DNA of 64,000 bases, taken from contig CAZHWM010000004.1 in NCBI GenBank assembly GCA_964535935.1, positions 47,569-111,568 of the forward strand. Direction: 5' to 3'. How positions within the stretch are numbered: position 1 is the stretch's first letter; each line of letters opens with the position of its first letter. Both the position numbers and the translations under genes were made by a program. Positions 16,927 to 41,158 of this stretch are shown piece by piece. Source of the stretch: an uncultured Planctomycetales bacterium (GTDB taxonomy: Bacteria; Omnitrophota; Gorgyraeia; Zapsychrales; Zapsychraceae). The notes under the pieces were generated by a model. The model had not been told where the DNA came from, made no database searches, and was given only the letters and a program-made list of their open reading frames with translations.

Positions 16927-17385
16927 GTGTTAGGCATGGCCAAAAAAGTAGCTAAGGTAGGCATAAAAAAAGAACCGGGGTATTTGTATTTTGTTGATAA
17001 GGATGGTGATGTATCATGTGCGGTAATGGCTCGTGGGACTAAGAAAGGCGGCAAGCCGAAGAAGGTTGCAAAGGTAGGAATAACAAAAGAGGCAGGGTAT
17101 TTGTATTTTATTGATAAGAATGGAGATATATCATGTGCCAAGATGGTACGAGGTGGGAAGAAAAAGAAGACGGCTGCTAAGAAAACAGCTGCTAAGAAAA
17201 AGACAACCGCTGCAACTAAAAAGACTGCTGTTAAGAAGACAGTAAAAAAGGCCACAGTAAAGAAGACTGCTGCTAAGAAGACAGTAAAAAAGGCCATAGT
17301 AAAGAAGACTGTTGCAAAAAAGAAGGCTTCAGCTAAGAAGGTCTCTACAAAGAAGAAGGTAACCAAAAAGGCTAGAAAGAGATAG
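16927..17385 (+). CDS. Histone H1-like / AlgP-like lysine-alanine-rich DNA-binding protein with a duplicated N-terminal module
   Basis: C-terminal half is AKKT/AAKK low-complexity repeats; the N-terminus is two copies of a ~39-aa module (KVAKVGIxKExGYLYFxDKxGDxSCAxMxRG); RBS GGAGG. Confidence 0.7.
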   Translation: MLGMAKKVAKVGIKKEPGYLYFVDKDGDVSCAVMARGTKKGGKPKKVAKVGITKEAGYLYFIDKNGDISCAKMVRGGKKKKTAAKKTAAKKKTTAATKKTAVKKTVKKATVKKTAAKKTVKKAIVKKTVAKKKASAKKVSTKKKVTKKARKR

Positions 17386-20326: not shown

Positions 20327-22975
20327 ATGAAAAAAAATATTTTTTATAAGAGACAGTTAAGATTGATAGTTGCAGTGTTATTGTTGATATCTCTATGCAT
20401 AGTAACAAGGGTATATGCAGTTCAGGAAGCGAAGGAGTTATTTTTTGTCGCTCAGGAGGCATTTGAGGATGGTTTCTATGATGTAGCTATTCGTTATATT
20501 AACCAACTTTTGGAAAAATATCCTGATACGGAACGTAATGTTAAAGCGAAATTGTTGTTGGGGCAATGTTATTTTTTTAAAAAAGAATATTTAAAGGCAT
20601 ATGATACCTTTCATGATTTACTTCAATACACAGAGTTGAAGGACGCGACCTTGTTTTGGTTAGGGGAGACTTATCTTAAGGGAGCGGATTATAAAGAGGC
20701 AGAAAAACATTATAAAGAGTTAATCGAATTGTATCCTGATTCTATATATACGCCACAGGCATATTATTCGTTAGGCTGGCTTTATTTTGACCAGAAAGAA
20801 TTCAAGAAGGCTGGTAAGATGTTCAAAAAGTTGGTGCATAAATTTCCAAAACACCAATTATGTGAAGAGGCAAGATTTAAATTAGGAGAAATTAAATTTG
20901 ATCGAGGTAAATATAAGGAGGCTTTACGATATTTTGAAGAATATTTAAAAGCCTATCCTCAGTCTACCCGGAGGGCTGATGCATATTTTATTATGGGGGA
21001 GTCTTGTTATAGCCTTAATGATTTCCTTACAGCTATTACTTATTATACTAAAGCGGCTGATATAGCATATGATAGTAATTTGATATTAATGGCTAAGGTA
21101 AGTTTAGGCTGGTGCTATTTAAAGCTTGGCAAGTATAATATATCTCAGAAATATTTTGATGCCGCAGAAAAATTTGCTAAACAAAAGGGGATTGATTCAG
21201 ATGATATATATTTAGGGAAAGCGAGTTTATTTACAGAAACAGGTGAGTATAAAAAAGCATTGGATGCATATTCCCAATTGATAGAACGGTTCCCTAAAAG
21301 TAAGAGGATTTTTGAGGCATATTTGGGTAAGGCAAATACTTATTATAAATTAAAACAATACTTATTTGCTATCCGTACTTATAAAGAATTAATTAATAAG
21401 TTATCCGTCTTGGATAGAGGAGCAAGTACAGTTGCAGGTAGTAGGTCTACTAGAATGTATTATGGGCAAGGTGCCACGGCATCTGAGATTGTAAATAATC
21501 ATAATAGTCCTTTATTAAACACTTCTTCATTGTCTTATACAAAACATCAACCACTTTCTAAGGATTATAAGGATATATTAGAAAAGGCATATTTTGGCCT
21601 TGCTTGGTCATATCTAAAATCAGGTGATGTTGATTCCTCTATAAAGATATTTCGTACAGTAAAAGATAAAACCGATAATGAGATAGTAGAAATAAGTGCT
21701 CTAGCCCAGATAGGAGATGCTTATCAAGATATAGGACAGTATAATAAGGCAATAGAAGTTTATGATGAGATATTAAAGGAATATTCTAATAGCCCTTATT
21801 TAGATTATGTCCAGTATCGCCAGGGAATAGCTCTTTTAAAATCTGATAAAGTAAAGGCTGCAGTCCTTTCTTTTGAAACTCTTAAGGCAAATTTTCCGGA
21901 GAGTAAATTTCTTAAAGATGTAAAGTATTACTTGGCAGTGTCATATTTTAAGATGGGGGATTGGTCAAATACGATTGAGCAAATGAATGATTTCATAGCT
22001 TCTTCCTCTGAAAAGGATAAACGTTCTATAGGGGAGGCCTATTATATTCTGGCATTAGCAGAGTTTAATATAGCTGAATATAAAAAGGCCTTAAAGAGTT
22101 TTAATTATATTATTAAACAATATAAATCTGAAGATAGGTTGATTGGGAAGTCAGAGATAGGGATTGCTAAGTGCTATTATAGAATAGGCAAGGTAGATGA
22201 GTCGATAAAGAGATTTAAGATTTTGGTTTATAAATATCCGAATTCTTCAATAGAGGCAGATGCGTTGATTTGGTTAGGGGATTATTATTTAGGAGTTTCG
22301 GACTTTGATAATGCCATTGATTATTATTCCCAATTCGTTAAGGAGTTTCCTGAGCATAAACAGATAAATATGGTCCTTTACGATTTGGGACAGGCATATT
22401 TTGCAAAAGAGGAATATGATAAGGCCTTAAATGCTTTTAAAAGAATTGACAGGAAAGACATTGAATTGTATGCTAAGGCAAGACTTGTTATTGCAGAAAT
22501 ATTTTCCCGTAAATTGGAGCCAGATGCTGCTATAGATACATACAATAGCATTATAAAAACTTCTCCAGAATTTAAACGTGATGCCTATGTGAAGATAGCG
22601 GAAATTTATAAGGGATTGGGAGAGTATAATAAAGCTATTGCTGCATATAAATCCGCTCTTTCAGCAAAATTAGGACGTAGCAGAACAGAGGCAGTCGAGA
22701 TACGGTTTCTTATTGGTGATGCTTATGAGTTGATGGGTAATCCTTTAAAGGCAGTAGATGAATATTTTAAAATACCATATCTTTATAAAAATAAAAAACA
22801 TTGGGTTGTTAAGGCATATCTTAATATTGCTAAGGTGTTCGAGAATGAGGGGAAGTGGTCTGAAGCTAAAAAGATATATGAAAAGATTATTGGGTTACAT
22901 ACCGATGAAGCAAAATTTGCAAAAGAGAGAATTGAGTGGATGAGAGCACATAATTTGATTGGATGGGAAGGATAG
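20327..22975 (+). CDS. Large tetratricopeptide-repeat protein with N-terminal signal/anchor
   Basis: 882 aa; numerous TPR-like Y/A/L-rich 34-aa repeats; hydrophobic N-terminus; 13 bp after uvrA and directly upstream of exbB. Confidence 0.7.
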   Translation: MKKNIFYKRQLRLIVAVLLLISLCIVTRVYAVQEAKELFFVAQEAFEDGFYDVAIRYINQLLEKYPDTERNVKAKLLLGQCYFFKKEYLKAYDTFHDLLQYTELKDATLFWLGETYLKGADYKEAEKHYKELIELYPDSIYTPQAYYSLGWLYFDQKEFKKAGKMFKKLVHKFPKHQLCEEARFKLGEIKFDRGKYKEALRYFEEYLKAYPQSTRRADAYFIMGESCYSLNDFLTAITYYTKAADIAYDSNLILMAKVSLGWCYLKLGKYNISQKYFDAAEKFAKQKGIDSDDIYLGKASLFTETGEYKKALDAYSQLIERFPKSKRIFEAYLGKANTYYKLKQYLFAIRTYKELINKLSVLDRGASTVAGSRSTRMYYGQGATASEIVNNHNSPLLNTSSLSYTKHQPLSKDYKDILEKAYFGLAWSYLKSGDVDSSIKIFRTVKDKTDNEIVEISALAQIGDAYQDIGQYNKAIEVYDEILKEYSNSPYLDYVQYRQGIALLKSDKVKAAVLSFETLKANFPESKFLKDVKYYLAVSYFKMGDWSNTIEQMNDFIASSSEKDKRSIGEAYYILALAEFNIAEYKKALKSFNYIIKQYKSEDRLIGKSEIGIAKCYYRIGKVDESIKRFKILVYKYPNSSIEADALIWLGDYYLGVSDFDNAIDYYSQFVKEFPEHKQINMVLYDLGQAYFAKEEYDKALNAFKRIDRKDIELYAKARLVIAEIFSRKLEPDAAIDTYNSIIKTSPEFKRDAYVKIAEIYKGLGEYNKAIAAYKSALSAKLGRSRTEAVEIRFLIGDAYELMGNPLKAVDEYFKIPYLYKNKKHWVVKAYLNIAKVFENEGKWSEAKKIYEKIIGLHTDEAKFAKERIEWMRAHNLIGWEG

Positions 22976-23065
22976 CCCTTTCAAAAGTTGTAGGTTTTGT
23001 CTTGGTTTTTATTCCCAGATTGTGATTTATCTTTAATTAGAATAAGTAATTAGGAGGAAAAGCTA

Positions 23066-23722
23066 ATGAATGGACTTTGGCAGATGAATATATGGACTAT
23101 GATAAAGGCGGGTGGCCCAATTATGATTCCAATATTGTTGTGTTCTTTTTTTGGTGTAGCTATTATTATTGAAAAATTACTATATTTTAGAAGTATTAAG
23201 GACGATATAGTTAGACTTAAGCAACATGTCTTTGAGTTTATTAAAGAAAATAGAATGAAGGAAGCGATAGAGCTTTGTGATAGAAGCCCTTCCCCGGTTG
23301 CTAAGATAATGAAGGCAGGTATTATTAAATTCGGTTGTTCTAGGGAAGAGATAAAGGAAAGTATGGAGGATGCGAGTTTGTTTGAGATCCCAAAATTAGA
23401 AAGTAAGATAAGCGCCTTGGCAACGATAGCACATATAAGTCCGTTATTAGGGCTTTTAGGTACTGTTACGGGGATGACTGCTAGTTTTAGTATGATACAG
23501 AGACAGGCAGCTTCTCTTAATCCTGTAACTCCTGGTGATTTGGCAGGGGGTATCGGAGAGGCGCTTTTGACAACAGTAGCGGGTCTTATTGTGGCTATTC
23601 CTGCTTTTGTCGCATATAATTATTTTGTAAATCGCATTAATCATTTTATCTTGGATATGGAGAGGGCAGCCACTGAGTTGGTTAATTATATGTGTCAAAT
23701 TGCAGAGCAAGGAGTTGATTAG
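23066..23722 (+). CDS. MotA/TolQ/ExbB family proton channel
   Basis: 218 aa, three TM segments, conserved TolQ/ExbB C-terminal region; AGGAGG RBS. Confidence 0.85.
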   Translation: MNGLWQMNIWTMIKAGGPIMIPILLCSFFGVAIIIEKLLYFRSIKDDIVRLKQHVFEFIKENRMKEAIELCDRSPSPVAKIMKAGIIKFGCSREEIKESMEDASLFEIPKLESKISALATIAHISPLLGLLGTVTGMTASFSMIQRQAASLNPVTPGDLAGGIGEALLTTVAGLIVAIPAFVAYNYFVNRINHFILDMERAATELVNYMCQIAEQGVD

Positions 23723-23769
23723 TTTTAAAATAGCTTTAATATTTAATAATATTTAACTTAAGATAACAA

Positions 23770-24174
23770 ATGAAATTTAGGAGACATACCAAATTAGAAT
23801 ATGGGTTGGAGCAGATAGATATAGCTCCTCTTATAGATGTAATTTTTCAGTTGTTGATATTTTTTATGTTGTCTTCCTCCTTTACTTTTCAGACTGGAAT
23901 TAAGGTGAGTCTGCCAAAGGCAGTGACTAGTGATGCAATAAAGGATGAGAATCTTATTATAACTATTACGCGTGAAAATGTTATTTATCTGAATGGTAAA
24001 GTAGCAACTATGGAAGAATTACGGCATCAGCTTAGCAAAGCAGCAGACAATGGTAGGGCATTATTGATAAAGGCAGATAGACGGGCATCTGTAGGTAGAA
24101 TAGTTGATGTCTGGGATTTGTGTAGAAATTTGGGTATTGAGAAGATAAATATAGCTACAAACCAAGGAAGCTAA
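23770..24174 (+). CDS. ExbD/TolR family biopolymer transport protein
   Basis: 134 aa, single N-terminal TM (IDVIFQLLIFFML) plus periplasmic domain typical of ExbD/TolR. Confidence 0.85.
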   Translation: MKFRRHTKLEYGLEQIDIAPLIDVIFQLLIFFMLSSSFTFQTGIKVSLPKAVTSDAIKDENLIITITRENVIYLNGKVATMEELRHQLSKAADNGRALLIKADRRASVGRIVDVWDLCRNLGIEKINIATNQGS

Positions 24175-24236
24175 AGGATTAGGGAATAACATTAGGGGTT
24201 GATAAAATTTTAGGTGGAATTAATTATTTTTAAGAT

Positions 24237-24662
24237 ATGTCACTACGACAACATGGATTGTTCCTTTTGTCATTAACGTTTTCAATATTCGCACAATTTT
24301 TGCTATTTAAAAAGATAGTGATTGTGCCGATAGAGTATCATCCAGGGGAAAAACCCCAGATAGTATTTTTAGGTGCAATTTTAAAAAATGTGAGGACTCC
24401 ATTGATAACGACGGATAACTATGTAAGCAAGTATTTTGTTTATAATGATATAATACCTATTTCAAATGAAGATTTTCGTAATATATTAGTAGATAAACCT
24501 ATTTGTTATGTAACAGATGAAGGGAAATATCCTAAGGGTTATCCCCCAAAGACAGTGTTTCCTTTAAAGCCAATAGTAGAAGATAATGAAACTTTAGACA
24601 TGGAAAATAGTGGTATCTTAAAGATACAACCATATCTGCCATTACGATTTTATATAAAATGA
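24237..24662 (+). CDS. Hypothetical membrane-anchored protein (possible TonB/TolA-like partner)
   Basis: 141 aa, N-terminal TM helix, Pro-rich stretch (YPKGYPPKTVFPLKP); its position after exbBD suggests an energy-transducer partner, but nothing in the sequence confirms this. Confidence 0.3.
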   Translation: MSLRQHGLFLLSLTFSIFAQFLLFKKIVIVPIEYHPGEKPQIVFLGAILKNVRTPLITTDNYVSKYFVYNDIIPISNEDFRNILVDKPICYVTDEGKYPKGYPPKTVFPLKPIVEDNETLDMENSGILKIQPYLPLRFYIK

Positions 24663-24898
24663 TACAACTTACTATAAATACTGCTGTTGCTATTTATGTT
24701 TCTTTTTTTATTTTTCTTGTATTTAGTTTATGGTTATTTTATGATTATAATGAAAAAATTGGCATATATGACGTTAAGTTTTTAAGACAGTGTCCATTTT
24801 GTACATATTTATTTTTTTATTATAATAATAAAGGAAAGGATGAAACTATTTTATGTCCGAGATGTAAAAGTCATTTTGAATATATACCCAAAAAATGA
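24659..24898 (+). CDS. Hypothetical small membrane protein with C-terminal zinc ribbon
   Basis: 79 aa; one TM helix; CPFC…(x21)…CPRC; start overlaps the upstream stop (ATGA). Confidence 0.4.
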   Translation: MIQLTINTAVAIYVSFFIFLVFSLWLFYDYNEKIGIYDVKFLRQCPFCTYLFFYYNNKGKDETILCPRCKSHFEYIPKK

Positions 24899-24926
24899 GA
24901 TAGGGACATTTATTTGATGGCTTATT

Positions 24927-25268
24927 ATGTTAAAAGAATTAAGAAAGGATAATGAAGGTGTTGTTTTTGTTACGGTTATAATGATAATAACGGTAGTGAT
25001 AGCACTTGTTGTGAGTATATTAGGGCTAAATACTACACGTGTTAAAACCACAGAAAGTGAGATAAGACAGATACAGTCGGAATTATTGGCTGAAGGGGCC
25101 TTAGATTTATTTTTATCAAATCAACTTTCAGATTCCGCAGGGAATTTTATTAGTGATTCCCTATATATAGGTCCTTATTTATTTAATATAAGTGCTAATC
25201 TTTATAGTAGTGGGACAGGTATTTTTGGGACTTCAAAACTGAATATAGATGTAGTTTATTCAGAATAA
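24927..25268 (+). CDS. Hypothetical pilin-like protein (N-terminal hydrophobic helix, no canonical prepilin site)
   Basis: 113 aa; N-terminus KDNEGVVFVTVIMIITVVIALV resembles a minor pseudopilin lacking Glu+5; lies just upstream of pilM. Confidence 0.3.
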   Translation: MLKELRKDNEGVVFVTVIMIITVVIALVVSILGLNTTRVKTTESEIRQIQSELLAEGALDLFLSNQLSDSAGNFISDSLYIGPYLFNISANLYSSGTGIFGTSKLNIDVVYSE

Positions 25269-25307
25269 GATGTTGTTTAATACTACCTTTAAAGATAAAC
25301 TGGGAAG

Positions 25308-26837
25308 ATGATGGAACAAGGAACACAGATAGGTATGTTTTGGGCTAGTAATTATTTGTTTTTTGTAGAAGCCCGAGGGATAGATATCGTTAAGACCTTT
25401 AAAGTTTCAATTAAAGCAAAGCTATCTGGCGGGATAGGTGTAGCTAAGATAGAGGAGGGTATACAGTTGGCTTCTATCCCCCCAGAAGATCTTCCTGATA
25501 ATAGTCTTATTAATATTTCTTTGCCCGCACAAGATATTCTTTTCCGTTCTTTTGTTGTTCCATGGGTAAGTGCAAATGAGATAAAGTCAGTGGTAGAGTT
25601 TGAGGTTTTGAAATATATTCCATTTAGCCTGGAAGATTTGGTTTATTCTTTCCATTCTACAGTATGCACCAAAGATAATCTTCGATCATTGCGTATAATT
25701 TTTGTTGGTATAAAAAATACGGTGTTACAAAGATATTTGAACTATGTAAGGGAGGCAGGTAAAGAGCTTAATTATGTTGAACCAGGGGCAGTGGCTTTAA
25801 TTAGAGGTCTTTTGGTCAAGGATATTATTTCCATAGAACAAACTATTGCTATCGTAGAGAAAGATGATAAGGATGGAAAAATAATTATAACGACTCAGGG
25901 TGAACCGTTGTTTGTTAGAGAGTTTCAATTAAGACCAGCTTATGAAGAAGGGGAAGAGGATAACGATAGATGGAGTACTCGACTTATAGATGAGGTGAAT
26001 ATTTCATTGGATTACTTTTGCAGACAGGAAAATATGCCAAGTGTAGAGAAGGTTATATTTTTATCGATAATCCCATCCGATATAGTGATAAAGAAATTAG
26101 AGGGGAAGATATCGTTACCTATACAGGTAGTTTCTGTTCAGGAGATATTTCATGATGATGGACTTAATTCAATAAGTTTTCTAAAGGCTTATGGTTCTGC
26201 TGTAGCGGGACAGAAACTTCCTGTATATTTTGAGTTATCAGGCGAGAAGAAAAATCCACATATTCAAATTTCGTCTTATGATGAAGGGTTGGGTTATAAA
26301 GAAATTGCTAAGACAGCGGTAGTGTGTGTATTGGCTATTATATTAACTTTGGTTGTTACTAATAATTTGCTCAGGGAACATAGACATAAGATTGATATGT
26401 TAAGAAAAGATTTAGGAGAATATCAAAGTGTTTCCATAGATAAGGTTAGGGTGAAGAACATAAATTTAAAAAATAGATTAAAAATGTTAAAAGATATTCG
26501 CTTAAAGAGTGATGTCCATTTTTTTTTAAAACTCATACCTACGCTGTTGCCATCGGGGACATGGATTAAGGATATAGATATTACTTATTTAGATACATTT
26601 AAAAAAAATAAAAAAGGTAAAGAGTCAGAAGGGGGGAAAGGGGAAATTAGTATTAGTATGTCAGGTTATGCTTACTTAGATGACATAAAGGAACAGTTTA
26701 GGCAGGTTAATGAATTATTGAAGAATTTAAAGGATGAAAAACGATTTTCAAGATTTTTTGATAATATTAATTTAGAAACTAATATTACAAGATTAGATGA
26801 TTACACTGTGACAGTGTTTAAGATTCAATGTAGATAA
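25308..26837 (+). CDS. Type IV pilus assembly PilM-PilN fusion protein
   Basis: 509 aa: an N-terminal ~320-aa actin-like PilM-like region (…VEPGAVALIRGL…), then a TM helix (AVVCVLAIILTLVV) and a coiled-coil/periplasmic PilN-like tail. Confidence 0.6.
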   Translation: MMEQGTQIGMFWASNYLFFVEARGIDIVKTFKVSIKAKLSGGIGVAKIEEGIQLASIPPEDLPDNSLINISLPAQDILFRSFVVPWVSANEIKSVVEFEVLKYIPFSLEDLVYSFHSTVCTKDNLRSLRIIFVGIKNTVLQRYLNYVREAGKELNYVEPGAVALIRGLLVKDIISIEQTIAIVEKDDKDGKIIITTQGEPLFVREFQLRPAYEEGEEDNDRWSTRLIDEVNISLDYFCRQENMPSVEKVIFLSIIPSDIVIKKLEGKISLPIQVVSVQEIFHDDGLNSISFLKAYGSAVAGQKLPVYFELSGEKKNPHIQISSYDEGLGYKEIAKTAVVCVLAIILTLVVTNNLLREHRHKIDMLRKDLGEYQSVSIDKVRVKNINLKNRLKMLKDIRLKSDVHFFLKLIPTLLPSGTWIKDIDITYLDTFKKNKKGKESEGGKGEISISMSGYAYLDDIKEQFRQVNELLKNLKDEKRFSRFFDNINLETNITRLDDYTVTVFKIQCR

Positions 26838-26891
26838 GGAATATATTTTATTTATAAAAATTGTGTTGTTTATAGTCTGTGGAGAGGATGG

Positions 26892-27506
26892 ATGAATATA
26901 AAAGATCTAAGTAAGATAGATGTAAAGGATTTAAAGGATATAGATTTTAATGCACTTTTAAAGGATCTGCAGGGACGCCCAACTCTTTTAGTTAATATTT
27001 TATTGATTATTATTACTTTATTTGTAATAATACAAATTATAGTAGGGTATAAAACTAAAGTAAAAATTATACATAAAGAGATTCCAACTTTGGAAGAGAA
27101 GAAACAGGTGATCCAAGAGGCACAAAAGATAAAAAAAAATTATAAAACATTTTGGGATAAGCTTCCTCCTACAATATCTAAGGATAAGTTTATAGAATTA
27201 ATTTCAGATTTGGCTATAGCTAATAATATACAGATAATTTCTTTGTCACCAGTTGATAAAAGAGATGATGAGAATAAGGAGATACTGACCACATCTTTAA
27301 CTATTTTGGCTACTTCTAAGAATAATTATGATGATTTATTATCATTTATTAAGGCATTAGAGAATACTCTTTATGCAATAAGAATAGATGAATGGACTGT
27401 GAAGACAGGTGGACATGTTTTTCATCGCTTTTCAGCAAAAAAGCAGGATAGTAGTTCTATAAAATCGAGGTTGAAAATTACAGCAATTAATCTTAAACAT
27501 GATTAG
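26892..27506 (+). CDS. PilO-like pilus assembly protein
   Basis: 204 aa, single N-terminal TM (LLVNILLIIITLFVIIQIIV) then a coiled-coil/periplasmic domain; position after PilN. Confidence 0.5.
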   Translation: MNIKDLSKIDVKDLKDIDFNALLKDLQGRPTLLVNILLIIITLFVIIQIIVGYKTKVKIIHKEIPTLEEKKQVIQEAQKIKKNYKTFWDKLPPTISKDKFIELISDLAIANNIQIISLSPVDKRDDENKEILTTSLTILATSKNNYDDLLSFIKALENTLYAIRIDEWTVKTGGHVFHRFSAKKQDSSSIKSRLKITAINLKHD

Positions 27507-27987
27507 ACTATTTGTTATATTATATTTTATTTGTTATTTGGGATTTTTTCAAATAGGTGTTTTATGGGCATGGACATATAATCCATTTAAACCCAAGTTG
27601 CCTGAATGGCCGGGAAAAAAGACAGTTCCTCACAAAAAGAAGAAAAAGATTAAACCTAAAAAAATACGACCCATTCTACCTAACCCTATTCCTTCTATCA
27701 AAAATGAATATCATAAAAAAAATAAATATTATAGGAAAAAAAAGATAGGGGATAAAAGATCTAAACAACCAGTAACAAGACAAAAATCATTAAGTCCAGT
27801 TCCTCCTTTGCCAAGATTAGAAGTTACAGGTGTGGTTTGGAATAGTGATAGGCCCCAAGCTATTATTAATAATACAGTGGTAGGGATTGGGGATATTATT
27901 GAGAATACTAAAATAAAGGTGGTAGATATAAGAAAGGATGCGATTGATATAATATTTGCGGGAAAGAAAATTACTATTACTCCATGA
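27499..27987 (+). CDS. PilP-like periplasmic pilus assembly protein
   Basis: 162 aa; signal peptide, Lys/Pro-rich linker, C-terminal beta domain (…EVTGVVWNSDRPQAIINN…KVVDI…); directly upstream of the secretin. Confidence 0.45.
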   Translation: MIRLFVILYFICYLGFFQIGVLWAWTYNPFKPKLPEWPGKKTVPHKKKKKIKPKKIRPILPNPIPSIKNEYHKKNKYYRKKKIGDKRSKQPVTRQKSLSPVPPLPRLEVTGVVWNSDRPQAIINNTVVGIGDIIENTKIKVVDIRKDAIDIIFAGKKITITP

Positions 27988-28061
27988 AACTTGACAGGAT
28001 GTTTTATTAGAAGTAAAATAATATTTTCTAAAGAAGGCAAGATAAAAGGAGTTTTTTTATA

Positions 28062-29543
28062 ATGATAAAAAAAATTATAATATATATTATTATAATAGGA
28101 ATAGCTGCGCTATCATGGTGTTTCAGAGTTTTTGCAATGGAAGATTATTATTCAGATTTATACGGTTATGAAAAACCTCAGAAAACAATCTCAATGGATT
28201 TTAAAAATGCCTCTTTAAGTGATGTGCTTAAAATTTTTTCTCAACAATCAGGACTCAATTTTATCGCATCTGCTGATATTTCTAATAAAAAGATTAATCT
28301 CTATCTAGATCACGTACCAGTAGAGGAGGCACTCGAACGTATATTGTCTGCTAATAATTTAACCTATGAGATAAAAGAAGGAAGTAATATTTTTGTGGTT
28401 AAAAGACTACAGAAACCGGTTAAAGAACTAATGACAAGAGTATATAGATTAAAATATGCAACTGTATCTAATTCTAAATTGAATTTTACTTTAAGTAAAG
28501 ATCCAGAGTCTGGGGGTGGGACTCCTTCATTTAATAAGAGGAGAGCAGATGGTATTGTTGCCGCTGTAAGAGCACTTCTTACGCCAGATGGTCGTTTAGT
28601 AGAAGATAGTAGAACAAATAGCATTATAGTTACAGATGTGCCTAGTGTTTTCCCTGAAATAGAACAGACAATAGCTAGGCTGGATGTAAAGGTACCCCAG
28701 ATATTAATTGAAGTTGAGATGTTGGATGTTTCCAAAAATGATATTGATAAATTAGGAGTGGAATTTGGAGAAACTCCAGTTGCTTTCAGTGGAGGAGCTA
28801 GAGAGGATGTTTGGCCGTTTAATACTGATAATGCTAAGGATGATGGATATTCTATTGGAAGCGATAGGTATCAGACAAGTAAGATTGATTTTACTGGACT
28901 TAAATTTTGGCTTAGTTTTTTAAAAAGTTGTTCAGATACTAAGAGTTTAGCTCGCCCCAAAATTCTTACTTTGAATAATCAAACGGCTATTATTCAAATT
29001 AAAACAGACGAAGCGATAGGAGTGGCTTCTGTGACAACTACAGCAGGATCTCAGGGAATAACTACTGCAGAGGCGGAGCGAGTTGAGACAGGGGTGATTC
29101 TTAAAGTTACGCCTCAAGCTAACCTTGCTACCCGAGAGATAGTTATGGCTATAGAACCTAGAGTTATAGCAACAGGAGAAGACGTCACTTTTTCTACAGG
29201 AGCAGGGACAGCCTCTTTTAAGAATCCAGAAGAACGTAGTACACGTTCTATTCTACGAGTGAAAGATGGGGATACTGTAATTATTGGAGGGCTTGTTCGA
29301 AGTGAGGCTTCTAAAAAAAAGTTGAGAGTTCCTTTATTAGGGAGTATTCCTATATTAGGTATGGCATTTAGGAATAAGGATGATTCAGCTAAAGAGAGAG
29401 AATTAATGATATTTATTACTCCAACCATAATTGATGATACCCTGCCACAAAGGGTTGCCTCCGAAGAGTTTATTAGAGAAAGAAGTTTGCCTGCCCAAAA
29501 AGTAATGGCAATTAATAAAGAATTTTCACGTTTTTCAAAATAA
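28062..29543 (+). CDS. Secretin (PilQ/GspD family), compact
   Basis: 493 aa; signal peptide, two secretin_N-like domains, C-terminal secretin domain (…VPLLGSIPILGMAFRNK…ELMIFITPTII). Confidence 0.85.
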   Translation: MIKKIIIYIIIIGIAALSWCFRVFAMEDYYSDLYGYEKPQKTISMDFKNASLSDVLKIFSQQSGLNFIASADISNKKINLYLDHVPVEEALERILSANNLTYEIKEGSNIFVVKRLQKPVKELMTRVYRLKYATVSNSKLNFTLSKDPESGGGTPSFNKRRADGIVAAVRALLTPDGRLVEDSRTNSIIVTDVPSVFPEIEQTIARLDVKVPQILIEVEMLDVSKNDIDKLGVEFGETPVAFSGGAREDVWPFNTDNAKDDGYSIGSDRYQTSKIDFTGLKFWLSFLKSCSDTKSLARPKILTLNNQTAIIQIKTDEAIGVASVTTTAGSQGITTAEAERVETGVILKVTPQANLATREIVMAIEPRVIATGEDVTFSTGAGTASFKNPEERSTRSILRVKDGDTVIIGGLVRSEASKKKLRVPLLGSIPILGMAFRNKDDSAKERELMIFITPTIIDDTLPQRVASEEFIRERSLPAQKVMAINKEFSRFSK

Positions 29544-29560
29544 GTAATAGAGGGGAATTT

Positions 29561-31309
29561 ATGGCCCGTCTTAGATTAGGTGAGATTTTAGTAAAACAAG
29601 GTCTCATTACAGAAGAACAATTACAGAAAGCTATTGAGACGCAGAAAGTAGAGAAGGGACGTATTGGTGAGATTTTAATAAAGTTAGGTATGATTGATGA
29701 GGAGGGTATGACCGCTGCATTGGGGGCGCAGTTAGGGATTCCTTATTATACCTCTAATAATCCGGATCTATTGAAGCCACAGGATGATCAAGAATTAGAA
29801 AAATTAGTGCCCGCGGACTTTGCCCATAAAAATTGTGTCTTGCCACTTTCAAAACATATGAATTCTTTGACTTGTGCGGTATATGATCCCTTGGATTTAC
29901 TTTTGTTAGATAATTTGCGTCGTATTACAGGTTGTACAATTAATTTGGTTATTGCTCCGCGTTCTGTTTTGCAGAAGGCTATTACGAATTTTTACTATAA
30001 GAGTTCCTCCGGAGAAGGCAAGAGTTCCATGCTTGATCAAGAGGTGGAGAAGTCGTATAGCCATGAGGGAGAGGATGGTCTTATAGCGACGGCAAATTAT
30101 AGCCCGGTGGAAGATACGTCTTCAGATCTTAGTTTGGATAGAATAATAGAAAAGGCAGAACAGGCACCAGTTATTAAATTGGTGGACTTGATTATTCGTC
30201 AGGCTATAGATGAGAGGGCTAGTGATATTCATATAGAACCGTTTGAGAAAAAGATAAGTTTACGTTATAGAATAGACGGTAGGTTATATAATATTCCTCC
30301 TCCTGCTCCACATTTCCATTTACCCATAGTATCAAGGATTAAGATTTTGGCCAAATTAGATATAGCAGAAAAACGGCTCCCACAGGATGGTGCTATAACA
30401 GCTAAGTTAGAGGATAGAACTGTAGATATACGTATATCTACTATTCCTACAGTATGGGGAGAAAAGGTTGTTATGCGTATTCTTGATAAAAGTGCTACAC
30501 CGCTTGAATTATCTTCTTTGGGTTTTGATGTAAAACAAGTGGACCTTATAAAAAAGGCTCTTAAAAGTTCATATGGTTTATTTTTTGTAACAGGACCTAC
30601 GGGTAGTGGTAAGTCTACAACTCTATATTCTTCTTTAAAAGAGACTTTTGACCCACATAAAAATATCATGACAGTTGAAGATCCTGTGGAATATAAGATG
30701 GATGGGATAAATCAGGTAGCAGTCCGTTCAGAAATAGGCTTAACATTTGCAACTGCATTACGTTCATTTTTACGTCAAGACCCTGATATTATAATGGTGG
30801 GGGAGGTTAGAGATCTTGAGACCGCTTCTATATGCGTAAGAGCAGCACTTACTGGACATTTTGTATTAAGCACCCTTCATACTAATGATGCTGCCTCTGC
30901 TATAACACGTTTGATAGATATAGGAATACCGCATTATTTATTAACACCTTCATTGACCATGGTTGTAGGCCAGCGGTTAGCAAGAAAACTTTGTCCTAAG
31001 TGTAAAGAACCTTACGAGCCATCGGCAGAGAATCAGAGTGATATAAAATTTAAAAGTGATTTAATATATAAGGCTAAAGGATGTGAGCAGTGTAATAATA
31101 CCGGCTATAAAGGCCGTATTGTTATAGCAGAGGTGTTGCCTGTGGATGATGAAATTCGTGCTCTTATTACAAAGGGTGCTAGTAGTAATGAGATAAATGA
31201 TGCAGCGCGAAGGAAAGGTATGACCACTATATTTGAGTCGGGAATAAGGCTTGTTGAACAAGGTATATCAAGTTATGATGAAATATGTAGGGTGAGTATA
31301 AGTAGTTAG
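29561..31309 (+). CDS. Type IV pilus / type II secretion assembly ATPase (PilB/GspE family)
   Basis: 582 aa; N-terminal GSPII_E_N-like domain (GEILVKQGLITEEQL), Walker A GPTGSGKSTT, Asp box, His box, tetracysteine motif. Confidence 0.9.
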   Translation: MARLRLGEILVKQGLITEEQLQKAIETQKVEKGRIGEILIKLGMIDEEGMTAALGAQLGIPYYTSNNPDLLKPQDDQELEKLVPADFAHKNCVLPLSKHMNSLTCAVYDPLDLLLLDNLRRITGCTINLVIAPRSVLQKAITNFYYKSSSGEGKSSMLDQEVEKSYSHEGEDGLIATANYSPVEDTSSDLSLDRIIEKAEQAPVIKLVDLIIRQAIDERASDIHIEPFEKKISLRYRIDGRLYNIPPPAPHFHLPIVSRIKILAKLDIAEKRLPQDGAITAKLEDRTVDIRISTIPTVWGEKVVMRILDKSATPLELSSLGFDVKQVDLIKKALKSSYGLFFVTGPTGSGKSTTLYSSLKETFDPHKNIMTVEDPVEYKMDGINQVAVRSEIGLTFATALRSFLRQDPDIIMVGEVRDLETASICVRAALTGHFVLSTLHTNDAASAITRLIDIGIPHYLLTPSLTMVVGQRLARKLCPKCKEPYEPSAENQSDIKFKSDLIYKAKGCEQCNNTGYKGRIVIAEVLPVDDEIRALITKGASSNEINDAARRKGMTTIFESGIRLVEQGISSYDEICRVSISS

Positions 31310-31341
31310 TTTTTTATATTTGTCTTTAGGAGAATTGTCTT

Positions 31342-32571
31342 ATGCCTAAATTTGTTTATATAGTAAAGAATAAGGAAGGGAAGAGTTTTAAGAATGTAAT
31401 TGAGGTAGAAAATAAAAAGATTTTGATTTCTAGGTTACAGAAACAGGGCTATTTTATTGTAAGTATTAAAGAATTATCAGATAAAAGAATCTCACGTAAA
31501 AGAAGAAAGAGATCAACTAAAAGAAAATTTTCTCATAACGGGGTCAAATTAGATGATTTATTGACGTTTTCAAGACAACTGGCCACAATGTTAAATGCGG
31601 GGGTAACCTTGGTTAGGGCATTAGATGTTGTTTTATCACAGGCACAGAGTAAGAGGTTTTATGAGATCTTGACAAAGGTAAAAGAGGATGTAGAGCAAGG
31701 GAAACCTTTAAGTAGGGCATTAAGTCGTTATCCTGATGTATTTAGCCAATTCTGGTGTAGTCTTATAGAGGTAGGAGAGGCATCTGGAACATGTCCTAAT
31801 GTGTTGGAGAAATTAGCTTTTTACTTAGAGCAACAAGCGGCATTTAAATCTGCTATTATTTCAGGTATTTTGTATCCTGCTATTTTGTGCTTTGTAGCAG
31901 TTACAGTTATTGTAATATTCGCATTTTTTATAGCCCCAAAATTTCAACAGATATACAATAGTATGCATGCGAGTTTGCCTGTATTTACAAGGATTATTTT
32001 AAATGTATTTGATTTCTTGAAGGCCAAATTTTTATATATAATAGGTTTTCTATGGATTTTGGGTATAGCGTTCAAACAATACATTAAGACTTATAATGGA
32101 AGGCTTCAATTTGAAAACTTTATTTACTCATTACCGAAGATTGGAGAAATATATAAATTGATAGTCGTAGAACGTTTTTGTTCTCAGATGTCTATTTTAG
32201 TTGAATCAGGCGTTCCTATCTTGCAGGCATTGGATATTACTGAAAGATTGGTATCTAATCAAACATGTGCACTTATTGTAAATGATATAAAAGAAGGTGT
32301 TAAGGCAGGCGAACTTATTGTAGCTCCTATGGGACGAAGTGGGTTTTTCCCCCCGATGGTAATTCAGATGATAATGGTAGGAGAAGAAACAGGTGAACTC
32401 AGTCAGATGTTAAAACATGTCGCAGATTTTTATCAAAATAATGTCAAGACATTTATGGAAAGATTTTCGACCGTTATTGAGCCTATTATGATTATATTTA
32501 TGGGGCTTGTTATTGGTATGTTAGTGATGGCAATGTTTTTACCATTATTTAATATTACTCAGATGGCATAG
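31342..32571 (+). CDS. Type IV pilus inner-membrane platform protein (PilC/GspF family)
   Basis: 409 aa, two GspF-type repeats, three TM segments. Confidence 0.85.
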   Translation: MPKFVYIVKNKEGKSFKNVIEVENKKILISRLQKQGYFIVSIKELSDKRISRKRRKRSTKRKFSHNGVKLDDLLTFSRQLATMLNAGVTLVRALDVVLSQAQSKRFYEILTKVKEDVEQGKPLSRALSRYPDVFSQFWCSLIEVGEASGTCPNVLEKLAFYLEQQAAFKSAIISGILYPAILCFVAVTVIVIFAFFIAPKFQQIYNSMHASLPVFTRIILNVFDFLKAKFLYIIGFLWILGIAFKQYIKTYNGRLQFENFIYSLPKIGEIYKLIVVERFCSQMSILVESGVPILQALDITERLVSNQTCALIVNDIKEGVKAGELIVAPMGRSGFFPPMVIQMIMVGEETGELSQMLKHVADFYQNNVKTFMERFSTVIEPIMIIFMGLVIGMLVMAMFLPLFNITQMA

Positions 32572-32698
32572 AGAATAAATTTAATTTTATCTTTTGATTT
32601 TTCCCCATTTAGTATATACTATCTTCGACGTAATTATATACATATTTGCGGATTTTTTAGGTTAAGATAAAGAAAGGGAAAAATAAAAGAATTCTTTT

Positions 32699-32727
32699 TT
32701 GACACCAGCAGATAAATATCTTATACT
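32699..32727 (+). promoter_or_regulatory. sigma70-type promoter candidate for the major pilin gene (TTGACA, 17 nt, TATACT)
   Basis: -35 TTGACA at 32699-32704, 17-nt spacer, -10 TATACT at 32722-32727, ~100 bp upstream of the pilin ATG. Confidence 0.4.
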
Positions 32728-32825
32728 TTTAATAGCATTTAGTAGCAAAAGGAGAAAGTGGGGAAAAGAGAGTAATATATAAGGGATAATAAAAATCAAA
32801 TTTAATAAAGAAAGGAGAAGGTAAA

Positions 32826-33239
32826 ATGAATCTTAAGAGCAGAAAAGGCTTCACGTTATTGGAACTTATGATCGTACTAATTATTATTGGTGTATTAGCC
32901 AGTCTTGCTCTTCCACGTATGTTTGGTATGGTTGAAAAGTCCCGTGGTAACGAGGCTATGAGTTTTATTAGAGAGATAAGAAATTCTCTTGAAAGATGTT
33001 ATACAGAAAAGGCAGGGACATATGTTGATTGTGATAATTTTTCTAATTTAGATGTGGACCTTTCTGCACCCAATCAGCATTTTACATATACAATAACAGG
33101 TGTTAGTACCACAGGATATACAATTACGGCAACAAGAAATACTTTAGACGGTGGAGATGGTACAAGTACTATAACTGTTACTCAAGACTCCAGCGGTTAT
33201 ACGAGGACAGGGACAGGTCCATGGTCAAGCTGGCATTAA
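32826..33239 (+). CDS. Type IV (pseudo)pilin, major pilin candidate
   Basis: Class III signal peptide MNLKSRKG|FTLLELMIVLIIIG with Glu+5; 137 aa. Confidence 0.85.
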   Translation: MNLKSRKGFTLLELMIVLIIIGVLASLALPRMFGMVEKSRGNEAMSFIREIRNSLERCYTEKAGTYVDCDNFSNLDVDLSAPNQHFTYTITGVSTTGYTITATRNTLDGGDGTSTITVTQDSSGYTRTGTGPWSSWH

Positions 33240-33350
33240 TAAATATAATTTATATGATATGAATGTTGGACTGGTGGTGTAATTATTATGTAACAAAAAG
33301 ATAAGGTAACAGAAGGCATCGAAGCTCTGATATAGGGGTAAAGGGTTTCG

Positions 33351-33758
33351 ATGTTTCTGTTTATGATTGGTTTTATGGATAAAGAAACAATTGGAGTAAC
33401 TTTGTTTGAATTACTCCTTGTAATTATAATTATAGGTGTAATCGCTGCCCTTGCGTTTCCTCGTTTCTTTTATGTTATAGAAAAGTCCCATGCCTCTGAG
33501 GGAGTGGAGGTCCTTAGGTCGTTGTTAGCAGCACAGAGGTTATATGCCTTTGACAATAATGGTAATTATGCGAGTTCTTTAAATTCTTTAGATGTGACTA
33601 TCCCTTCTTTATCTTATTTTAATCAGCCTAATGTATTTAACAATGCAGCTGCTGTAGCTACTATTCAACGTAATACAGGTGCATATACCTTATCTATTAA
33701 CAGTAATGGAGATATTTCATGTGACGTCCCCAGTATTTGTAGTAAGTTAGGTTTTTAG
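33351..33758 (+). CDS. Prepilin-type pseudopilin
   Basis: …ETIG|VTLFELLLVIIIIGVIAALA prepilin N-terminus; the start could be the internal ATG at 33375. Confidence 0.7.
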   Translation: MFLFMIGFMDKETIGVTLFELLLVIIIIGVIAALAFPRFFYVIEKSHASEGVEVLRSLLAAQRLYAFDNNGNYASSLNSLDVTIPSLSYFNQPNVFNNAAAVATIQRNTGAYTLSINSNGDISCDVPSICSKLGF

Positions 33759-33794
33759 TCTAGGTAAATATTATATTTAGTTCCTTAAGAAACT

Positions 33795-34148
33795 ATGTTA
33801 AAGGTACTTAAAGAAGATGGACAGTCTATGGTAGAGGTAATTGTAACTGCTATTATCTTTATTATAGCTACAGTAGGTATTATGTCTACCTTACCTGTGT
33901 TAGCCCCTAAGGGCAGGGAGGTTGATAAAAGAATAACGGCTGCATATATAGGAAAAAGTGTTATAGAGTCGTTAAGGAATAGTATAGATCCAACGACATG
34001 GGATGACTCTACTGGTCCTTTGGCCACAGGAGTGCTACATACTATTTTAAAAGGTAGTAATAATGAATATGTAGTAAATTATTATTTAGTAGATCTCCCT
34101 GGAACAAACGTTAGACAGATTTTTATGAATATTTATTATCCAGACTAG
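33795..34148 (+). CDS. Prepilin-type minor pseudopilin
   Basis: …EDG|QSMVEVIVTAIIFII with Glu+5; 117 aa. Confidence 0.6.
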   Translation: MLKVLKEDGQSMVEVIVTAIIFIIATVGIMSTLPVLAPKGREVDKRITAAYIGKSVIESLRNSIDPTTWDDSTGPLATGVLHTILKGSNNEYVVNYYLVDLPGTNVRQIFMNIYYPD

Positions 34149-34150
34149 TT

Positions 34151-34741
34151 ATGAGCAAATATATTGAGGGGCTGACTTTAACAGAATTATTGGTTTCTAC
34201 TATCCTTATAGGCATTGTAATGTTAGGGGTTGTTGGGTTTAGTTTGTCTATAAAACAATTTCAGGATTCTGCAAGTAGAACTACTACTTTGCGTATGCGA
34301 CTTGCTTCTGCGATGGATCTCCTTGTCGAGGATGCCAAATTAGCTGTAGGAGATACTATAAATCCAGGGATAGCTGTATATCAGAATTCGACTGATCAAT
34401 CTATTTGTTTTAGACATGATGTAAACGATCCGTCATCATATGCTGATGATATTTGGATATGTTATTATCATGGTACAACTTATTCGCTATACAGGTATGT
34501 AGGCACATCATCAGCTAATGTGCCTTGTTCATCAGCATCTACATGTTCGGTTGGAACTACTTCTATAGAACATGTTATTGATCTGGTGCATGAAGGCGAC
34601 GGAGAATTTTTTCAGTTTTTAAGTGACGGTAGTATTGAGTTTACTATTAAGACTTCTTATGAGCCCAGCAAATTATCACATCCTATAGATAATCCGGAAT
34701 ATAGTCTCACTACTAGAGTAATGCCGTTGGCTCATAGTTGA
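34151..34741 (+). CDS. Prepilin-type minor pseudopilin (PilW/FimT-like size)
   Basis: MSKYIEG|LTLTELLVSTILIGIV prepilin N-terminus; 196 aa. Confidence 0.65.
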   Translation: MSKYIEGLTLTELLVSTILIGIVMLGVVGFSLSIKQFQDSASRTTTLRMRLASAMDLLVEDAKLAVGDTINPGIAVYQNSTDQSICFRHDVNDPSSYADDIWICYYHGTTYSLYRYVGTSSANVPCSSASTCSVGTTSIEHVIDLVHEGDGEFFQFLSDGSIEFTIKTSYEPSKLSHPIDNPEYSLTTRVMPLAHS

Positions 34742-34762
34742 ACTTATTCTTCTATTATTTTT

Positions 34763-34835
34763 GGGTCGGTAGCTCAATTGGGAGAGCGCTTGGTTCGCAA
34801 TCAAGAGGTTGGGGGTTCGATTCCCCTCCGATCCA
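34763..34835 (+). tRNA. tRNA-Ala (anticodon CGC)
   Basis: Hand-folded cloverleaf: 7-bp acceptor stem with G3:U70, D-stem GCTC/GAGC, anticodon loop TTCGCAA, T-arm GGGGG TTCGATT CCCCT, discriminator A73, no encoded CCA. Confidence 0.8.
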
Positions 34836-34942
34836 TAAAATATATATAAGGATATAGATGTTTTAGATGTAATAAATAAAAGTTTGTTTTTTTTCGTATA
34901 AAGAGGTATAATAGTACCTGTTTACTTAAAAAGAGATTTACT

Positions 34943-39494: not shown

Positions 39495-39551
39495 ATTTTT
39501 TCTCCCTTTAGGGAAAAGATGATAGTATCTTTTTAGTCGTATAGTTTTATT

Positions 39552-40459: not shown

Positions 40460-40481
40460 GATCTTCCCTCTTTTTGCAGGG

Positions 40482-40510
40482 TTTATATAATATAATAGAT
40501 TTATAGGCAA
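40482..40510 (-). promoter_or_regulatory. sigma70-type promoter candidate for dfx (TTGCCT, 17 nt, TATAAA)
   Basis: On the minus strand: -35 TTGCCT (40510-40505), 17-nt spacer, -10 TATAAA (40487-40482), ~22 nt upstream of the dfx ATG. Confidence 0.3.
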
Positions 40511-40552
40511 GATTTAATGGGCTTGCTATATTTATGTAGAGATATTGGCCTA

Positions 40553-41125: not shown

Positions 41126-41158
41126 TGTATTGCCCCCTTTTTTTTGTTTGTTATAGAT

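Follow-up and report, generated by a model that had tools for sequence, protein, structure and literature searches.

An ExbB/ExbD-type motor module beside the type IVa pilus genes of Omnitrophota, and its possible service to the pilus

Does a proton-driven motor encoded directly upstream of a pilus machine serve that pilus, or is it a neighbour with business of its own? The question is raised by a 64,000-nucleotide stretch of DNA (the window) from an uncultured Planctomycetales bacterium that GTDB places in the Omnitrophota (contig CAZHWM010000004.1, positions 47,569 to 111,568 of the forward strand). In the numbering of the whole 64-kb window, which is used throughout, the cluster under study occupies 20327-34741 and consists of 16 open reading frames (ORFs), all in one direction, as defined by the ORF list together with Pfam and NCBIfam searches. 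They encode a large secreted tetratricopeptide repeat (TPR) protein, ExbB- and ExbD-type motor subunits and three small membrane proteins, followed by the parts of a type IVa pilus (T4aP). An earlier reading, made from the sequence alone, had drawn up the same inventory, and all 16 ORFs were recovered with the positions and domains it had given.

In the current work we find that this ExbBD module is a constant companion of the pilus genes across the phylum. Our preferred reading, held tentatively, is that it acts as an accessory transducer of the proton-motive force (PMF) that serves the pilus, in the manner of the PocA-PocB-TonB3 system of Pseudomonas aeruginosa, a coupling that we infer. The module comprises the following genes (aa, amino acids; TM, transmembrane).

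20327..22975, plus strand: secreted TPR protein, 882 aa (TPR_6 1e-76; TIGR02795 246 bits)
23066..23722, plus strand: ExbB/TolQ-type proton-channel subunit, 218 aa (PF01618 MotA_ExbB 4e-31)
23770..24174, plus strand: ExbD/TolR-type subunit, 134 aa (PF02472 1e-29; TM Asp in PLIDV)
24237..24662, plus strand: putative short TonB/TolA-like anchor, 141 aa (family alignments; no Pfam or NCBIfam match)
24659..24898, plus strand: TM and zinc-ribbon protein, 79 aa (alignment of 35 members; no Pfam match)
24927..25268, plus strand: PilX/GspK-type minor pilin-like protein, 113 aa (GspK N-terminus 2.6e-6, a weak NCBIfam match)

The motor module and its linkage to the pilus genes

Related loci were gathered as homologues of the fused PilM-PilN protein (PilM-N), the source of which is almost exclusively Candidatus Omnitrophota genomes. 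The ORFs of the first 45 loci were searched with all window proteins; about 30 non-redundant loci lie on contigs extending upstream. Throughout the ~30 non-redundant loci the order reads, 5' to 3', UvrA, the TPR protein, ExbB, ExbD, a gene of 130-190 aa, the 79-aa and 113-aa proteins, and then PilM-N, PilO, the PilP-like protein, secretin, ATPase, PilC and pilins. The ExbBD module lies directly upstream of pilMN in every one of them, at PilM-N identities of 28-39%, and two look-ups anchored on ExbB, covering 33 contigs, agreed with this. The TPR gene precedes ExbB in every locus that reaches that far. Conservation of the exbBD-pilMN juxtaposition, which the sequence-only reading had left to comparative genomics, thus holds for all orthologous loci reaching upstream, including L004 and L005, where the upstream flank has been replaced and the link between module and pil genes kept. 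The link is also kept in L029 and L051, which carry insertions between UvrA and the TPR gene. The insertion in L051 (1321-3291) is an extra 656-aa TPR gene; at the same place L029 has a gap of ~1.5 kb (3471-4978), which may hold the same extra gene.

From exbB through the PilX-like gene, neighbours overlap or are separated by 1-4 bp: the anchor stop overlaps the next gene start (ATGA), the zinc-ribbon gene abuts the anchor gene, and the median gap between the zinc-ribbon and PilX-like genes is 1 bp. In the window, the accessory block and pilMN are 39 bp apart. A scan for terminator-like sites found 10 where 8.9 were expected, and none in the intergenic gaps of 22975-32826, the plus-strand sites in that range all being intragenic. 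Nor was one seen before 24237, where the sequence-only reading had allowed that a terminator might end a separate ExbBD transcript.

The TPR protein has a Sec signal peptide (...RVYA/VQE) and about 20 repeats of the TPR_6/YbgF type. Its TIGR02795 score (cut-off 90) is built from 11 separate repeat matches, and it reaches 73 bits with the full-length CpoB model, for which the cut-off is 383. The N-terminal TPRs (residues 41-160) are the best-conserved part, at 63-75%, and a low-complexity insertion rich in Ser, Thr, Gly and Asn (residues ~361-405), present in the window lineage only, interrupts the TPR array.

ExbB scores 116 bits with the TolQ model (TIGR02796; cut-off 221) and 76 bits with the ExbB model (cut-off 206), and its best PDB matches are TolQ (4e-12) and ExbB (4e-11). 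ExbD aligns with the ExbD of 7ajq, the TM Asp included, and scores 66 bits with the TolR model (cut-off 127); both subunits therefore fall below the level of TolQ/TolR equivalogs. The identity of ExbB is 68-77% among the best 120 database matches, and only orthologues of at least 68% identity occur among those 120; across loci the median is 69% for ExbB and 70.5% for ExbD. These values are about those of UvrA (69-72%) and the ATPase, and conservation of ~70% is compatible with a motor or a housekeeping role alike. No TonB-dependent receptor or Plug protein was found in the window or its annotated flanks, where the only STN domain is the secretin's.

The 141-aa protein, described earlier as a Pro-rich anchored protein, does possess the TM anchor and the Pro-rich linker; what that description missed is a likely third subunit of TonB/TolA type. 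We assign it as such by its position after exbD and by its motif, and not as a member of either family. A short cytoplasmic N-terminus leads into a TM helix with S-x3-H, a conserved KPxFxFLGxIL segment comes ~20 residues on, and beyond it are a variable Pro/Lys-rich linker and, at the C-terminus, a conserved PYxPLR peptide. Sequence conservation in the family is poor overall and the architecture constant. Among 30 family members the His of S-x3-H is at least 90% conserved and the Ser is in the majority, whereas near the C-terminus the family alignments show Y133 to be at least 90% conserved and L136 invariant. The AF2 model is confident for helix 3-24 only, with pLDDT below 50 for the remainder, which would fit a disordered tail. 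Neither the anchor nor its relatives contain TonB_C or TolA-III or match any Pfam or NCBIfam family, and a search of a large protein database with the anchor profile gave six Omnitrophota proteins, none with TonB_C.

The gene for the 79-aa protein is found in every orthologous locus examined, always between the anchor and PilX-like genes. The protein consists of an N-terminal TM helix and a CxxC...CxxC zinc ribbon, with QCPYCT...CPRCKSYI conserved in the 35 members; its position after the helix would place the ribbon in the cytoplasm. The 113-aa protein combines a small beta domain with a basic leader that has an invariant Gly at its end and is followed by (I/V)VFVTVL, position +5 not being Glu; 13 of 18 family members match Pfam PilX_N (best 1.4e-5). 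Earlier called pilin-like, it can now be named more exactly: these matches, with that to the GspK N-terminus, point to a minor pilin of PilX/GspK type, in which the leader likewise lacks the +5 Glu.

The pilus machine and its surroundings

The second part of the cluster contains the genes of the pilus proper, together with two promoter candidates.

25308..26837, plus strand: PilM-PilN fusion, 509 aa (weak T2SSL 3.4e-5, PilM 1.6e-6; fold)
26892..27506, plus strand: PilO/GspM-like bitopic protein, 204 aa (Pfam PilO 0.0026, below cut-off)
27499..27987, plus strand: PilP/GspC-like protein, 162 aa (weak T2SSB 1.8e-4, T2SSC 2.4e-4, GspC 0.002)
27991..28019, plus strand: sigma-70-like promoter candidate TTGACA-17-TAAAAT between the PilP-like and secretin genes (consensus match alone, 11/12)
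28062..29543, plus strand: compact secretin, 493 aa (Pfam STN 2e-11, Secretin_N 5e-13, Secretin 3.5e-38)
29561..31309, plus strand: PilB/GspE/MshE-type assembly ATPase, 582 aa (T2SSE 5e-136)
31342..32571, plus strand: PilC/GspF platform, 409 aa (T2SSF 8e-62, two stretches)
32699..32727, plus strand: sigma-70-like promoter candidate TTGACA-17-TATACT, ahead of the major pilin gene in a gap of 254 bp (11/12 of consensus)
32826..33239, plus strand: major pilin, 137 aa, G/FTLLE (N_methyl 1e-8, ComP_DUS 8e-9)
33351..33758, plus strand: minor pilin, 135 aa, G/VTLFE (GspG/PilA N-terminal matches; sequence)
33795..34148, plus strand: minor pilin, 117 aa, G/QSMVE (class-III signal peptide; position kept across loci)
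34151..34741, plus strand: minor pilin, 196 aa, G/LTLTE (N_methyl 0.0019; weak PilV/GspH; sequence)

The PilM/PilN/PilO/PilP alignment complex is present, with PilM and PilN fused. All 37 related loci encode the fusion as one ORF, the lone apparent split (L044) being a run of N, and an exhaustive profile search at E<=1e-30 gave 474 representative clusters for the family, the best 150 of which are nearly all full length (500-556 aa). The fusion is therefore real, and the frameshift artefact that had been raised as an objection to it falls away. An AF2 model of modest confidence (core pLDDT 70-85) shows an actin-like cytoplasmic domain, a long TM/coiled-coil helix and a periplasmic ferredoxin-like domain, and Foldseek returned PilM structures first (5e-11 to 1e-8), then FtsA (1e-5) and PulL (3.5e-5). 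GspL was considered as an identity for the fusion and rejected on this basis, the fold being nearer to PilM than to PulL. An exact-sequence look-up of PilM-N gave no recorded match. PilO is supported by its conserved position and by relatives annotated, weakly, as PilO. The PilP-like protein, also at a conserved position, starts with a TM anchor, from which a Lys/Pro-rich linker leads to an HR-like beta domain at the C-terminus. Running domain models against each protein, as had been advised, thus confirmed the named parts, if weakly for PilM-N, PilO and PilP, and found no TonB_C or TolA.

The secretin was described earlier as a compact protein with two N-domains, and its 493 residues indeed contain a signal peptide, N0/STN, a single N1 (one Secretin_N in Pfam) and the secretin domain, with no AMIN and no N2/N3. 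The PilQ model scores best (190 bits, cut-off 284), ahead of GspD (173, cut-off 351) and MshL (141, cut-off 250). Its most conserved part is N0, whose median identity of 70.7% equals that of ExbB/ExbD, against 57% for the secretin domain. The segment before N0 varies across the relatives, and no TonB-box-like conserved strand was found in it. The ATPase carries tandem MshEN motifs for cyclic di-GMP (c-di-GMP) at residues 5-57 (RLGEILVKQGLI...Q and RIGEILIKLGMI...Q) and scores 63 bits with NF053729, above the cut-off of 38; the MshEN consensus we take to be RLGxx(L/V/I)(L/V/I)xxG(L/V/I)(L/V/I)xxxxLxxxLxxQ. With the PilB and GspE models the ATPase scores 610 (cut-off 676) and 595 bits, and the platform scores 352 bits with GspF and 327 with PilC (cut-off 700), all four below cut-off, so that the two proteins belong to the T4aP at the level of families and not of equivalogs. 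Since the pilus components all lie below the NCBIfam equivalog cut-offs, the system is a divergent one.

Four proteins with class-III leaders (G/xxxxE) are pilins, one major and three minor. The best promoter-like sites are the two listed above, and a scan of the gap before the major pilin gene found no sigma-54 promoter.

PilT is absent from the window and from a further 10 kb of right and 6 kb of left flank (~80 kb in all), and none of the 37 loci has a second T2SSE-family ATPase within 10 kb of its PilM-N gene. For PilD, no peptidase A24 match was obtained among the window ORFs of at least 100 aa or the annotated genes of the extra flanks. TolB and Pal were found neither in the window, nor in 16 kb of extra flank, nor in the annotated 6-10 kb flanks of six related loci. 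All window ORFs of at least 100 aa are assigned elsewhere, bar one basic protein (16927-17385) that resembles neither PilT nor PilD, and hence the window encodes no PilT, PilD, TolB or Pal, as the sequence-only reading had stated for the first two. That reading saw in the missing PilT, the fusion and the compact secretin, together with the embedded ExbBD genes, the possibility of a PMF-coupled pilus or secretion machine. The first three are no evidence for a PMF-driven pilus: PilT may lie elsewhere in the genome, and the fusion belongs to a large PilM-fold family. Commonly, pilT is found away from the pil operons, so that a local absence says little.

The window as a whole has a G+C content of ~35% and a strongly positive GC skew, and the plus strand carries almost all genes. 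The basic protein at 16927-17385 (plus strand) has 152 aa, two repeats of ...GYLYF[VI]DK[DN]GD[VI]SCA... and a histone-H1-like Lys/Ala-rich tail; it has no Pfam match. In ~18 Omnitrophota loci its gene keeps its place between those for AspDH and UvrA, and the product is possibly a protein of the nucleoid. The downstream boundary of the cluster is set by tRNA-Ala(CGC) (34762-34836, plus strand), which begins 21 nt past the stop of the last minor pilin and is followed by Rrf2, HD and hybrid-cluster-protein genes that are syntenic in the closest relative only. The only sizeable minus-strand island, 37724-42374, is also the only dip in GC skew and holds the oxidative-stress cluster of an anaerobe (flavin reductase, FprA-like flavodiiron protein, ferritin, desulfoferrodoxin, rubrerythrin, DUF2400 and a Fur-family regulator). 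At 47105-51234 (plus strand) lie a Fur-family gene and, after it, genes for DUF5320, two NifB/NifX-like (Nitro_FeMo-Co) proteins, a methyltransferase and two ATPases of MinD/ParA type into which 4Fe-4S ferredoxin domains are inserted. The remaining window ORFs include genes for arginine/lysine biosynthesis, UvrA, oxidative stress, FtsH, DHPS and CdaA.

What the motor may serve

If the module is an accessory transducer for the pilus, its action may be pictured as follows. Binding of c-di-GMP to the ATPase would switch on pilin polymerisation on PilC, by way of the PilM-N/PilO/PilP cage and the secretin. Proton flow through ExbB5-ExbD2 would move the anchor, whose periplasmic tail and PYxPLR peptide could touch a periplasmic partner, the candidates being the N-terminal TPRs and the secretin N0/STN. 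Through this contact the module would aid the assembly, positioning or opening of the machine where it crosses the outer membrane, a role that would be like that of PocA-PocB-TonB3 for the T4aP of P. aeruginosa. What speaks for it, besides the parts identified by domain, fold and motif, is the constant place of the module upstream of pilMN, kept when the upstream flank was changed, together with the 39-bp spacing free of terminator-like sites in the window and the precedents discussed below. In addition, the motor module contains the gene of a PilX/GspK-like pilin, which, like the zinc-ribbon gene, travels with the motor; an anchor with S-x3-H is encoded directly downstream of exbD; and the secretin N0/STN is unusually conserved.

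A good deal can be said on the other side. The synteny block also takes in genes with no relation to pilus or motor (HPPK, PanC, AspDH, a histone-like gene and UvrA), which makes synteny a weak argument here. The UvrA stop lies 13 bp before the TPR gene, and unrelated genes in the window normally stand 10-100 bp apart, in a compact genome whose gaps are small throughout; gene order and spacing are thus unspecific. In about two thirds of the relatives, moreover, a gap of ~350 bp with an HTH_17 gene separates the PilX-like gene from pilMN, which suggests separate ExbBD and pil transcripts in most relatives. This gene (excisionase/MerR-like, 58-67 aa) stands directly upstream of pilMN (for example L004:9783-9968, L006:5289-5471 and L043:9825-9998, with ~20 other loci), and its products are ~78-97% identical to their own consensus in most loci, two outliers being at ~67%; it probably encodes the regulator of the pil operon. 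Both the window and its closest relative lack the HTH_17 gene (tblastn E>0.6), their blocks being 39-48 bp apart. The usual layout is one of three blocks, and their near-fusion in the window is therefore a derived state.

A distant pil cluster (L043:9968-20018, 25% identity) tells the same way, having the same fused PilM-N and HTH gene and no ExbBD module. Glycan-modification genes precede it in place of the TPR/ExbBD module, and the phylum probably has in it a second type of pilus, paralogous to the first. Also missing from this cluster are the zinc-ribbon and PilX-like genes, from which we conclude that these two travel with the motor and not with the pil core. The sequence-only reading had named orthologous pilus loci lacking exbBD as an observation that would tell against it: there are none among the ~30 orthologous loci, and the cluster in L043 is such a case among distant ones.

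Rate covariation, assessed by partial Mantel tests, points in no direction that can be relied on, as the negative control failed and the tests do not discriminate: with UvrA as the control, unrelated AspDH gave a correlation of 0.71 with ExbB, and with AspDH in that place UvrA gave 0.5-0.6 with the pilus proteins. Taken as they stand, these non-discriminating tests lend no support to coupling, with ~0 for ExbB/ExbD against the pilus proteins under the AspDH control, and the TPR protein alone tracked the ATPase, PilM-N and PilO under both controls (0.56-0.76). Lastly, the anchor of the window has Gln in place of the motif His (codon 20, CAA, 24294-24296), in this lineage only, relatives at 88% and 67-68% identity both retaining His. 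The anchor profile gave only chance TM matches in the PDB, and hhalign against E. coli TonB put S16/H20 in register at a probability of 1%. Sequence homology of the anchor to TonB or TolA was thus not demonstrable.

The most serious rival, somewhat less probable in our judgement, was also raised by the sequence-only reading. It holds that the TPR, ExbB, ExbD and anchor genes encode a Tol-like system of envelope maintenance in reduced form, or a general Ton/Tol one, made up of TolQ, TolR, a short TolA and a CpoB-like TPR protein, which is a neighbour of the pilus by synteny and without which the pilus works. The order of ExbB, ExbD and anchor genes is that of tolQRA, ExbB is nearest to TolQ (116 vs 76 bits, and TolQ at 4e-12 in the PDB), and the repeats of the TPR protein are TPR_6 units of YbgF/CpoB type. 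Reduced Tol systems have been reported in PVC-type phyla (PMC8871954). Several of the points above count for it as well: synteny reaching PanC, AspDH and UvrA may be an ancient frozen block, ExbB/ExbD conserved like UvrA (69-72%) are what a housekeeping role would lead one to expect, their rates do not follow those of the pilus proteins (in the tests just described as not discriminating), a transcription break probably precedes pilMN in most relatives, and the pil genes of L043 do without the module. Set against this, neither TolB nor Pal turned up in the window, its 16-kb flank or the flanks of six related loci, the anchor has no TolA domain III, and the TPR protein, at 882 aa, is doubtful as a CpoB orthologue. 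Also against it are a PilX-like pilin gene at translational-coupling distance within the module and a pil link kept through rearrangement of the upstream flank. The Tol-like alternative is thus supported by its TolQ-best scores, YbgF-type repeats and tolQRA-like order, and weakened by the embedded pilin gene and by finding neither TolB nor Pal close by.

Going beyond the accessory role that we prefer, one could regard the motor as an integral part of the pilus, with the stator, a domain-less TonB-like anchor cut down to its TM helix, a flexible tether and a docking peptide at the C-terminus, a zinc-ribbon adaptor and the PilX-like pilin acting together on the N0/STN or the TPR scaffold; this we consider unlikely. 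Its role would then be gating, positioning or PilT-independent retraction, and, equally unlikely in our view, it would define a new class of domain-less TonB-like adaptors. It is as doubtful that the locus represents the first hard-wiring of a Poc-type dependence on a Ton motor into a pilus locus.

A further alternative, improbable on present evidence, concerns the pilus part, with ExbBD secondary: the machine might be a type II secretion system or an exporter with a short pseudopilus, and not a surface pilus. Each of its parts has a counterpart among GspC-M, such a system can do without a retraction ATPase and none was seen within 10 kb of PilM-N in the 37 loci, and the GspE and GspF scores are near those of PilB and PilC. 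PilM-N has the architecture of GspL and the PilP-like protein is TM-anchored like GspC, with T2SSC/T2SSB matches; still, the GspL, GspM, GspC and pseudopilin matches are all weak (T2SSL 3.4e-5, T2SSC 2.4e-4, GspK N-terminus 2.6e-6). On the other hand, the cytoplasmic fold is that of PilM (5e-11), far ahead of PulL (3.5e-5), the secretin has N0 and N1 only, not N0-N3, with PilQ as its best-scoring model, the major pilin has a ComP_DUS-type pilin domain, and no candidate substrates are encoded nearby. A published survey, too, classes the Omnitrophota clusters as type IVa pili (PMC10066038).

Least probable is that the ExbBD motor itself powers retraction, rotation or extrusion of the pilus instead of PilT, a possible but unsupported idea to which the lack of PilT in ~80 kb or near any of the 37 loci, the full set of stator and anchor adjoining the cluster and the pilin-like gene within the module lend some colour, but which has to reckon with how commonly pilT is unlinked, with the normal assembly ATPase present here and with the many type IV pili (T4P), such as MSHA and Com pili, that retract with no dedicated local ATPase.

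The answer matters for the biology of the phylum. Omnitrophota are ultra-small and largely host-dependent or predatory, and T4P are believed to attach them to their hosts (PMC10066038). If the module serves the pilus, as we tentatively prefer, it would offer a genomic handle on the dependence of T4P on ExbBD/TonB-like proteins, of which PocAB-TonB3 is the comparison, would define a minimal adaptor of TonB-like kind that has no C-terminal domain, and would point to the secretin N0/STN as a possible client of PMF transduction. If it is a reduced Tol system, it would show the minimal form of such an apparatus in a phylum related to the PVC group: TolQ and TolR with a TolA that is all tail and a giant TPR protein, and neither TolB nor Pal in the vicinity. 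In both cases, three formerly uncharacterised small proteins acquire testable identities.

Comparison with known systems

All core assembly parts of the canonical T4aP are shared by the present locus. It differs in the fusion of PilM and PilN, the TM anchor of the PilP-like protein, the secretin without AMIN, the MshEN module of the ATPase and the absence of a local PilT or PilD. The Vibrio MSHA locus is ordered MshI-J-K-L-M-N-E-G and then pilins; MshN is a TPR protein, and MshI joins PilM- and PilN-like parts. Alignment proteins, secretin, ATPase with MshEN, platform and a separate pilin block are common to both, whereas here MshM is missing, the MshL score is 141 vs 250 bits, and the TPR protein is larger and lies upstream with ExbBD. 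PilM, PilN and PilO homologues also occur as a cage round the flagellar motor of Helicobacter pylori, the torque coming from the ring of stator units (PMC10823254). Within the phylum itself, Seymour et al. 2023 described T4aP clusters in nearly all Omnitrophota (PMC10066038), and V. archaeovorus is, at second hand, reported to express type IVa pili (as cited in PMC10066038).

On the motor side, the likeness to Tol-Pal lies in the TolQ/TolR-like subunits, the S-x3-H anchor and a periplasmic TPR protein with repeats of the YbgF/CpoB type. The differences are the lack of TolB/Pal nearby, an anchor without TolA domains II and III, and scores below the equivalog cut-offs; CpoB, moreover, is about one third as long as the 882-aa TPR protein. 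With the Ton system the module shares ExbB and ExbD with the TM Asp, and the S-x3-H of the anchor, but neither TonB_C nor a TonB-dependent receptor was found in the searches described above. The Agl-Glt machinery of Myxococcus and relatives (AglRQS with GltD/E/C and the TonB-like GltG) likewise combines a motor of TolQR type with large TPR proteins and a bitopic TonB-like transducer, and its GltJ also has a cytoplasmic zinc-ribbon domain, recalling the 79-aa protein. Here, however, there are no Glt outer-membrane proteins, the anchor has no TonB_C, and the linkage is to a pilus and not to gliding; shared sequence is limited to the TPR and MotA_ExbB families (GltE 1.7e-8, TPRs only). The Agl-Glt core complex has been described as a conserved, linked gene set of unknown ancestral function (PMC3169522).

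The nearest parallel to the role that we tentatively prefer for the module is provided by PocAB-TonB3. In Pseudomonas the poc genes lie outside the operons of the pil machinery. PocA, PocB and TonB3 of P. aeruginosa are homologues of ExbB, ExbD and TonB and are required for T4aP production and localisation, and a contact of TonB3 with the N0 domain of PilQ was proposed because N0 resembles the signalling domain of FpvA (PMC5285504). In Acinetobacter baumannii, deletion of tonB2 reduces transformation (PMC8811193). These two and the TonBm-PocAB of P. putida have in common with the present module a PMF transducer of ExbB/ExbD/TonB type tied to T4aP (PMC5285504, PMC8811193, PMC8597729). The likeness is one of role, not of compared sequences, and the differences are that the module here abuts pilMN in all orthologous loci examined, that its anchor has no TonB C-terminal domain, and that giant TPR, zinc-ribbon and PilX-like proteins are added to it. 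In the published Omnitrophota literature that we searched, the constant ExbB/ExbD module, the tail-only anchor, the zinc-ribbon protein and the displaced PilX-like pilin are not described. Thus, T4aP clusters in Omnitrophota were already known; what is new is the constant ExbBD module with its small proteins, which joins known kinds of system to one another and does not make a new category.

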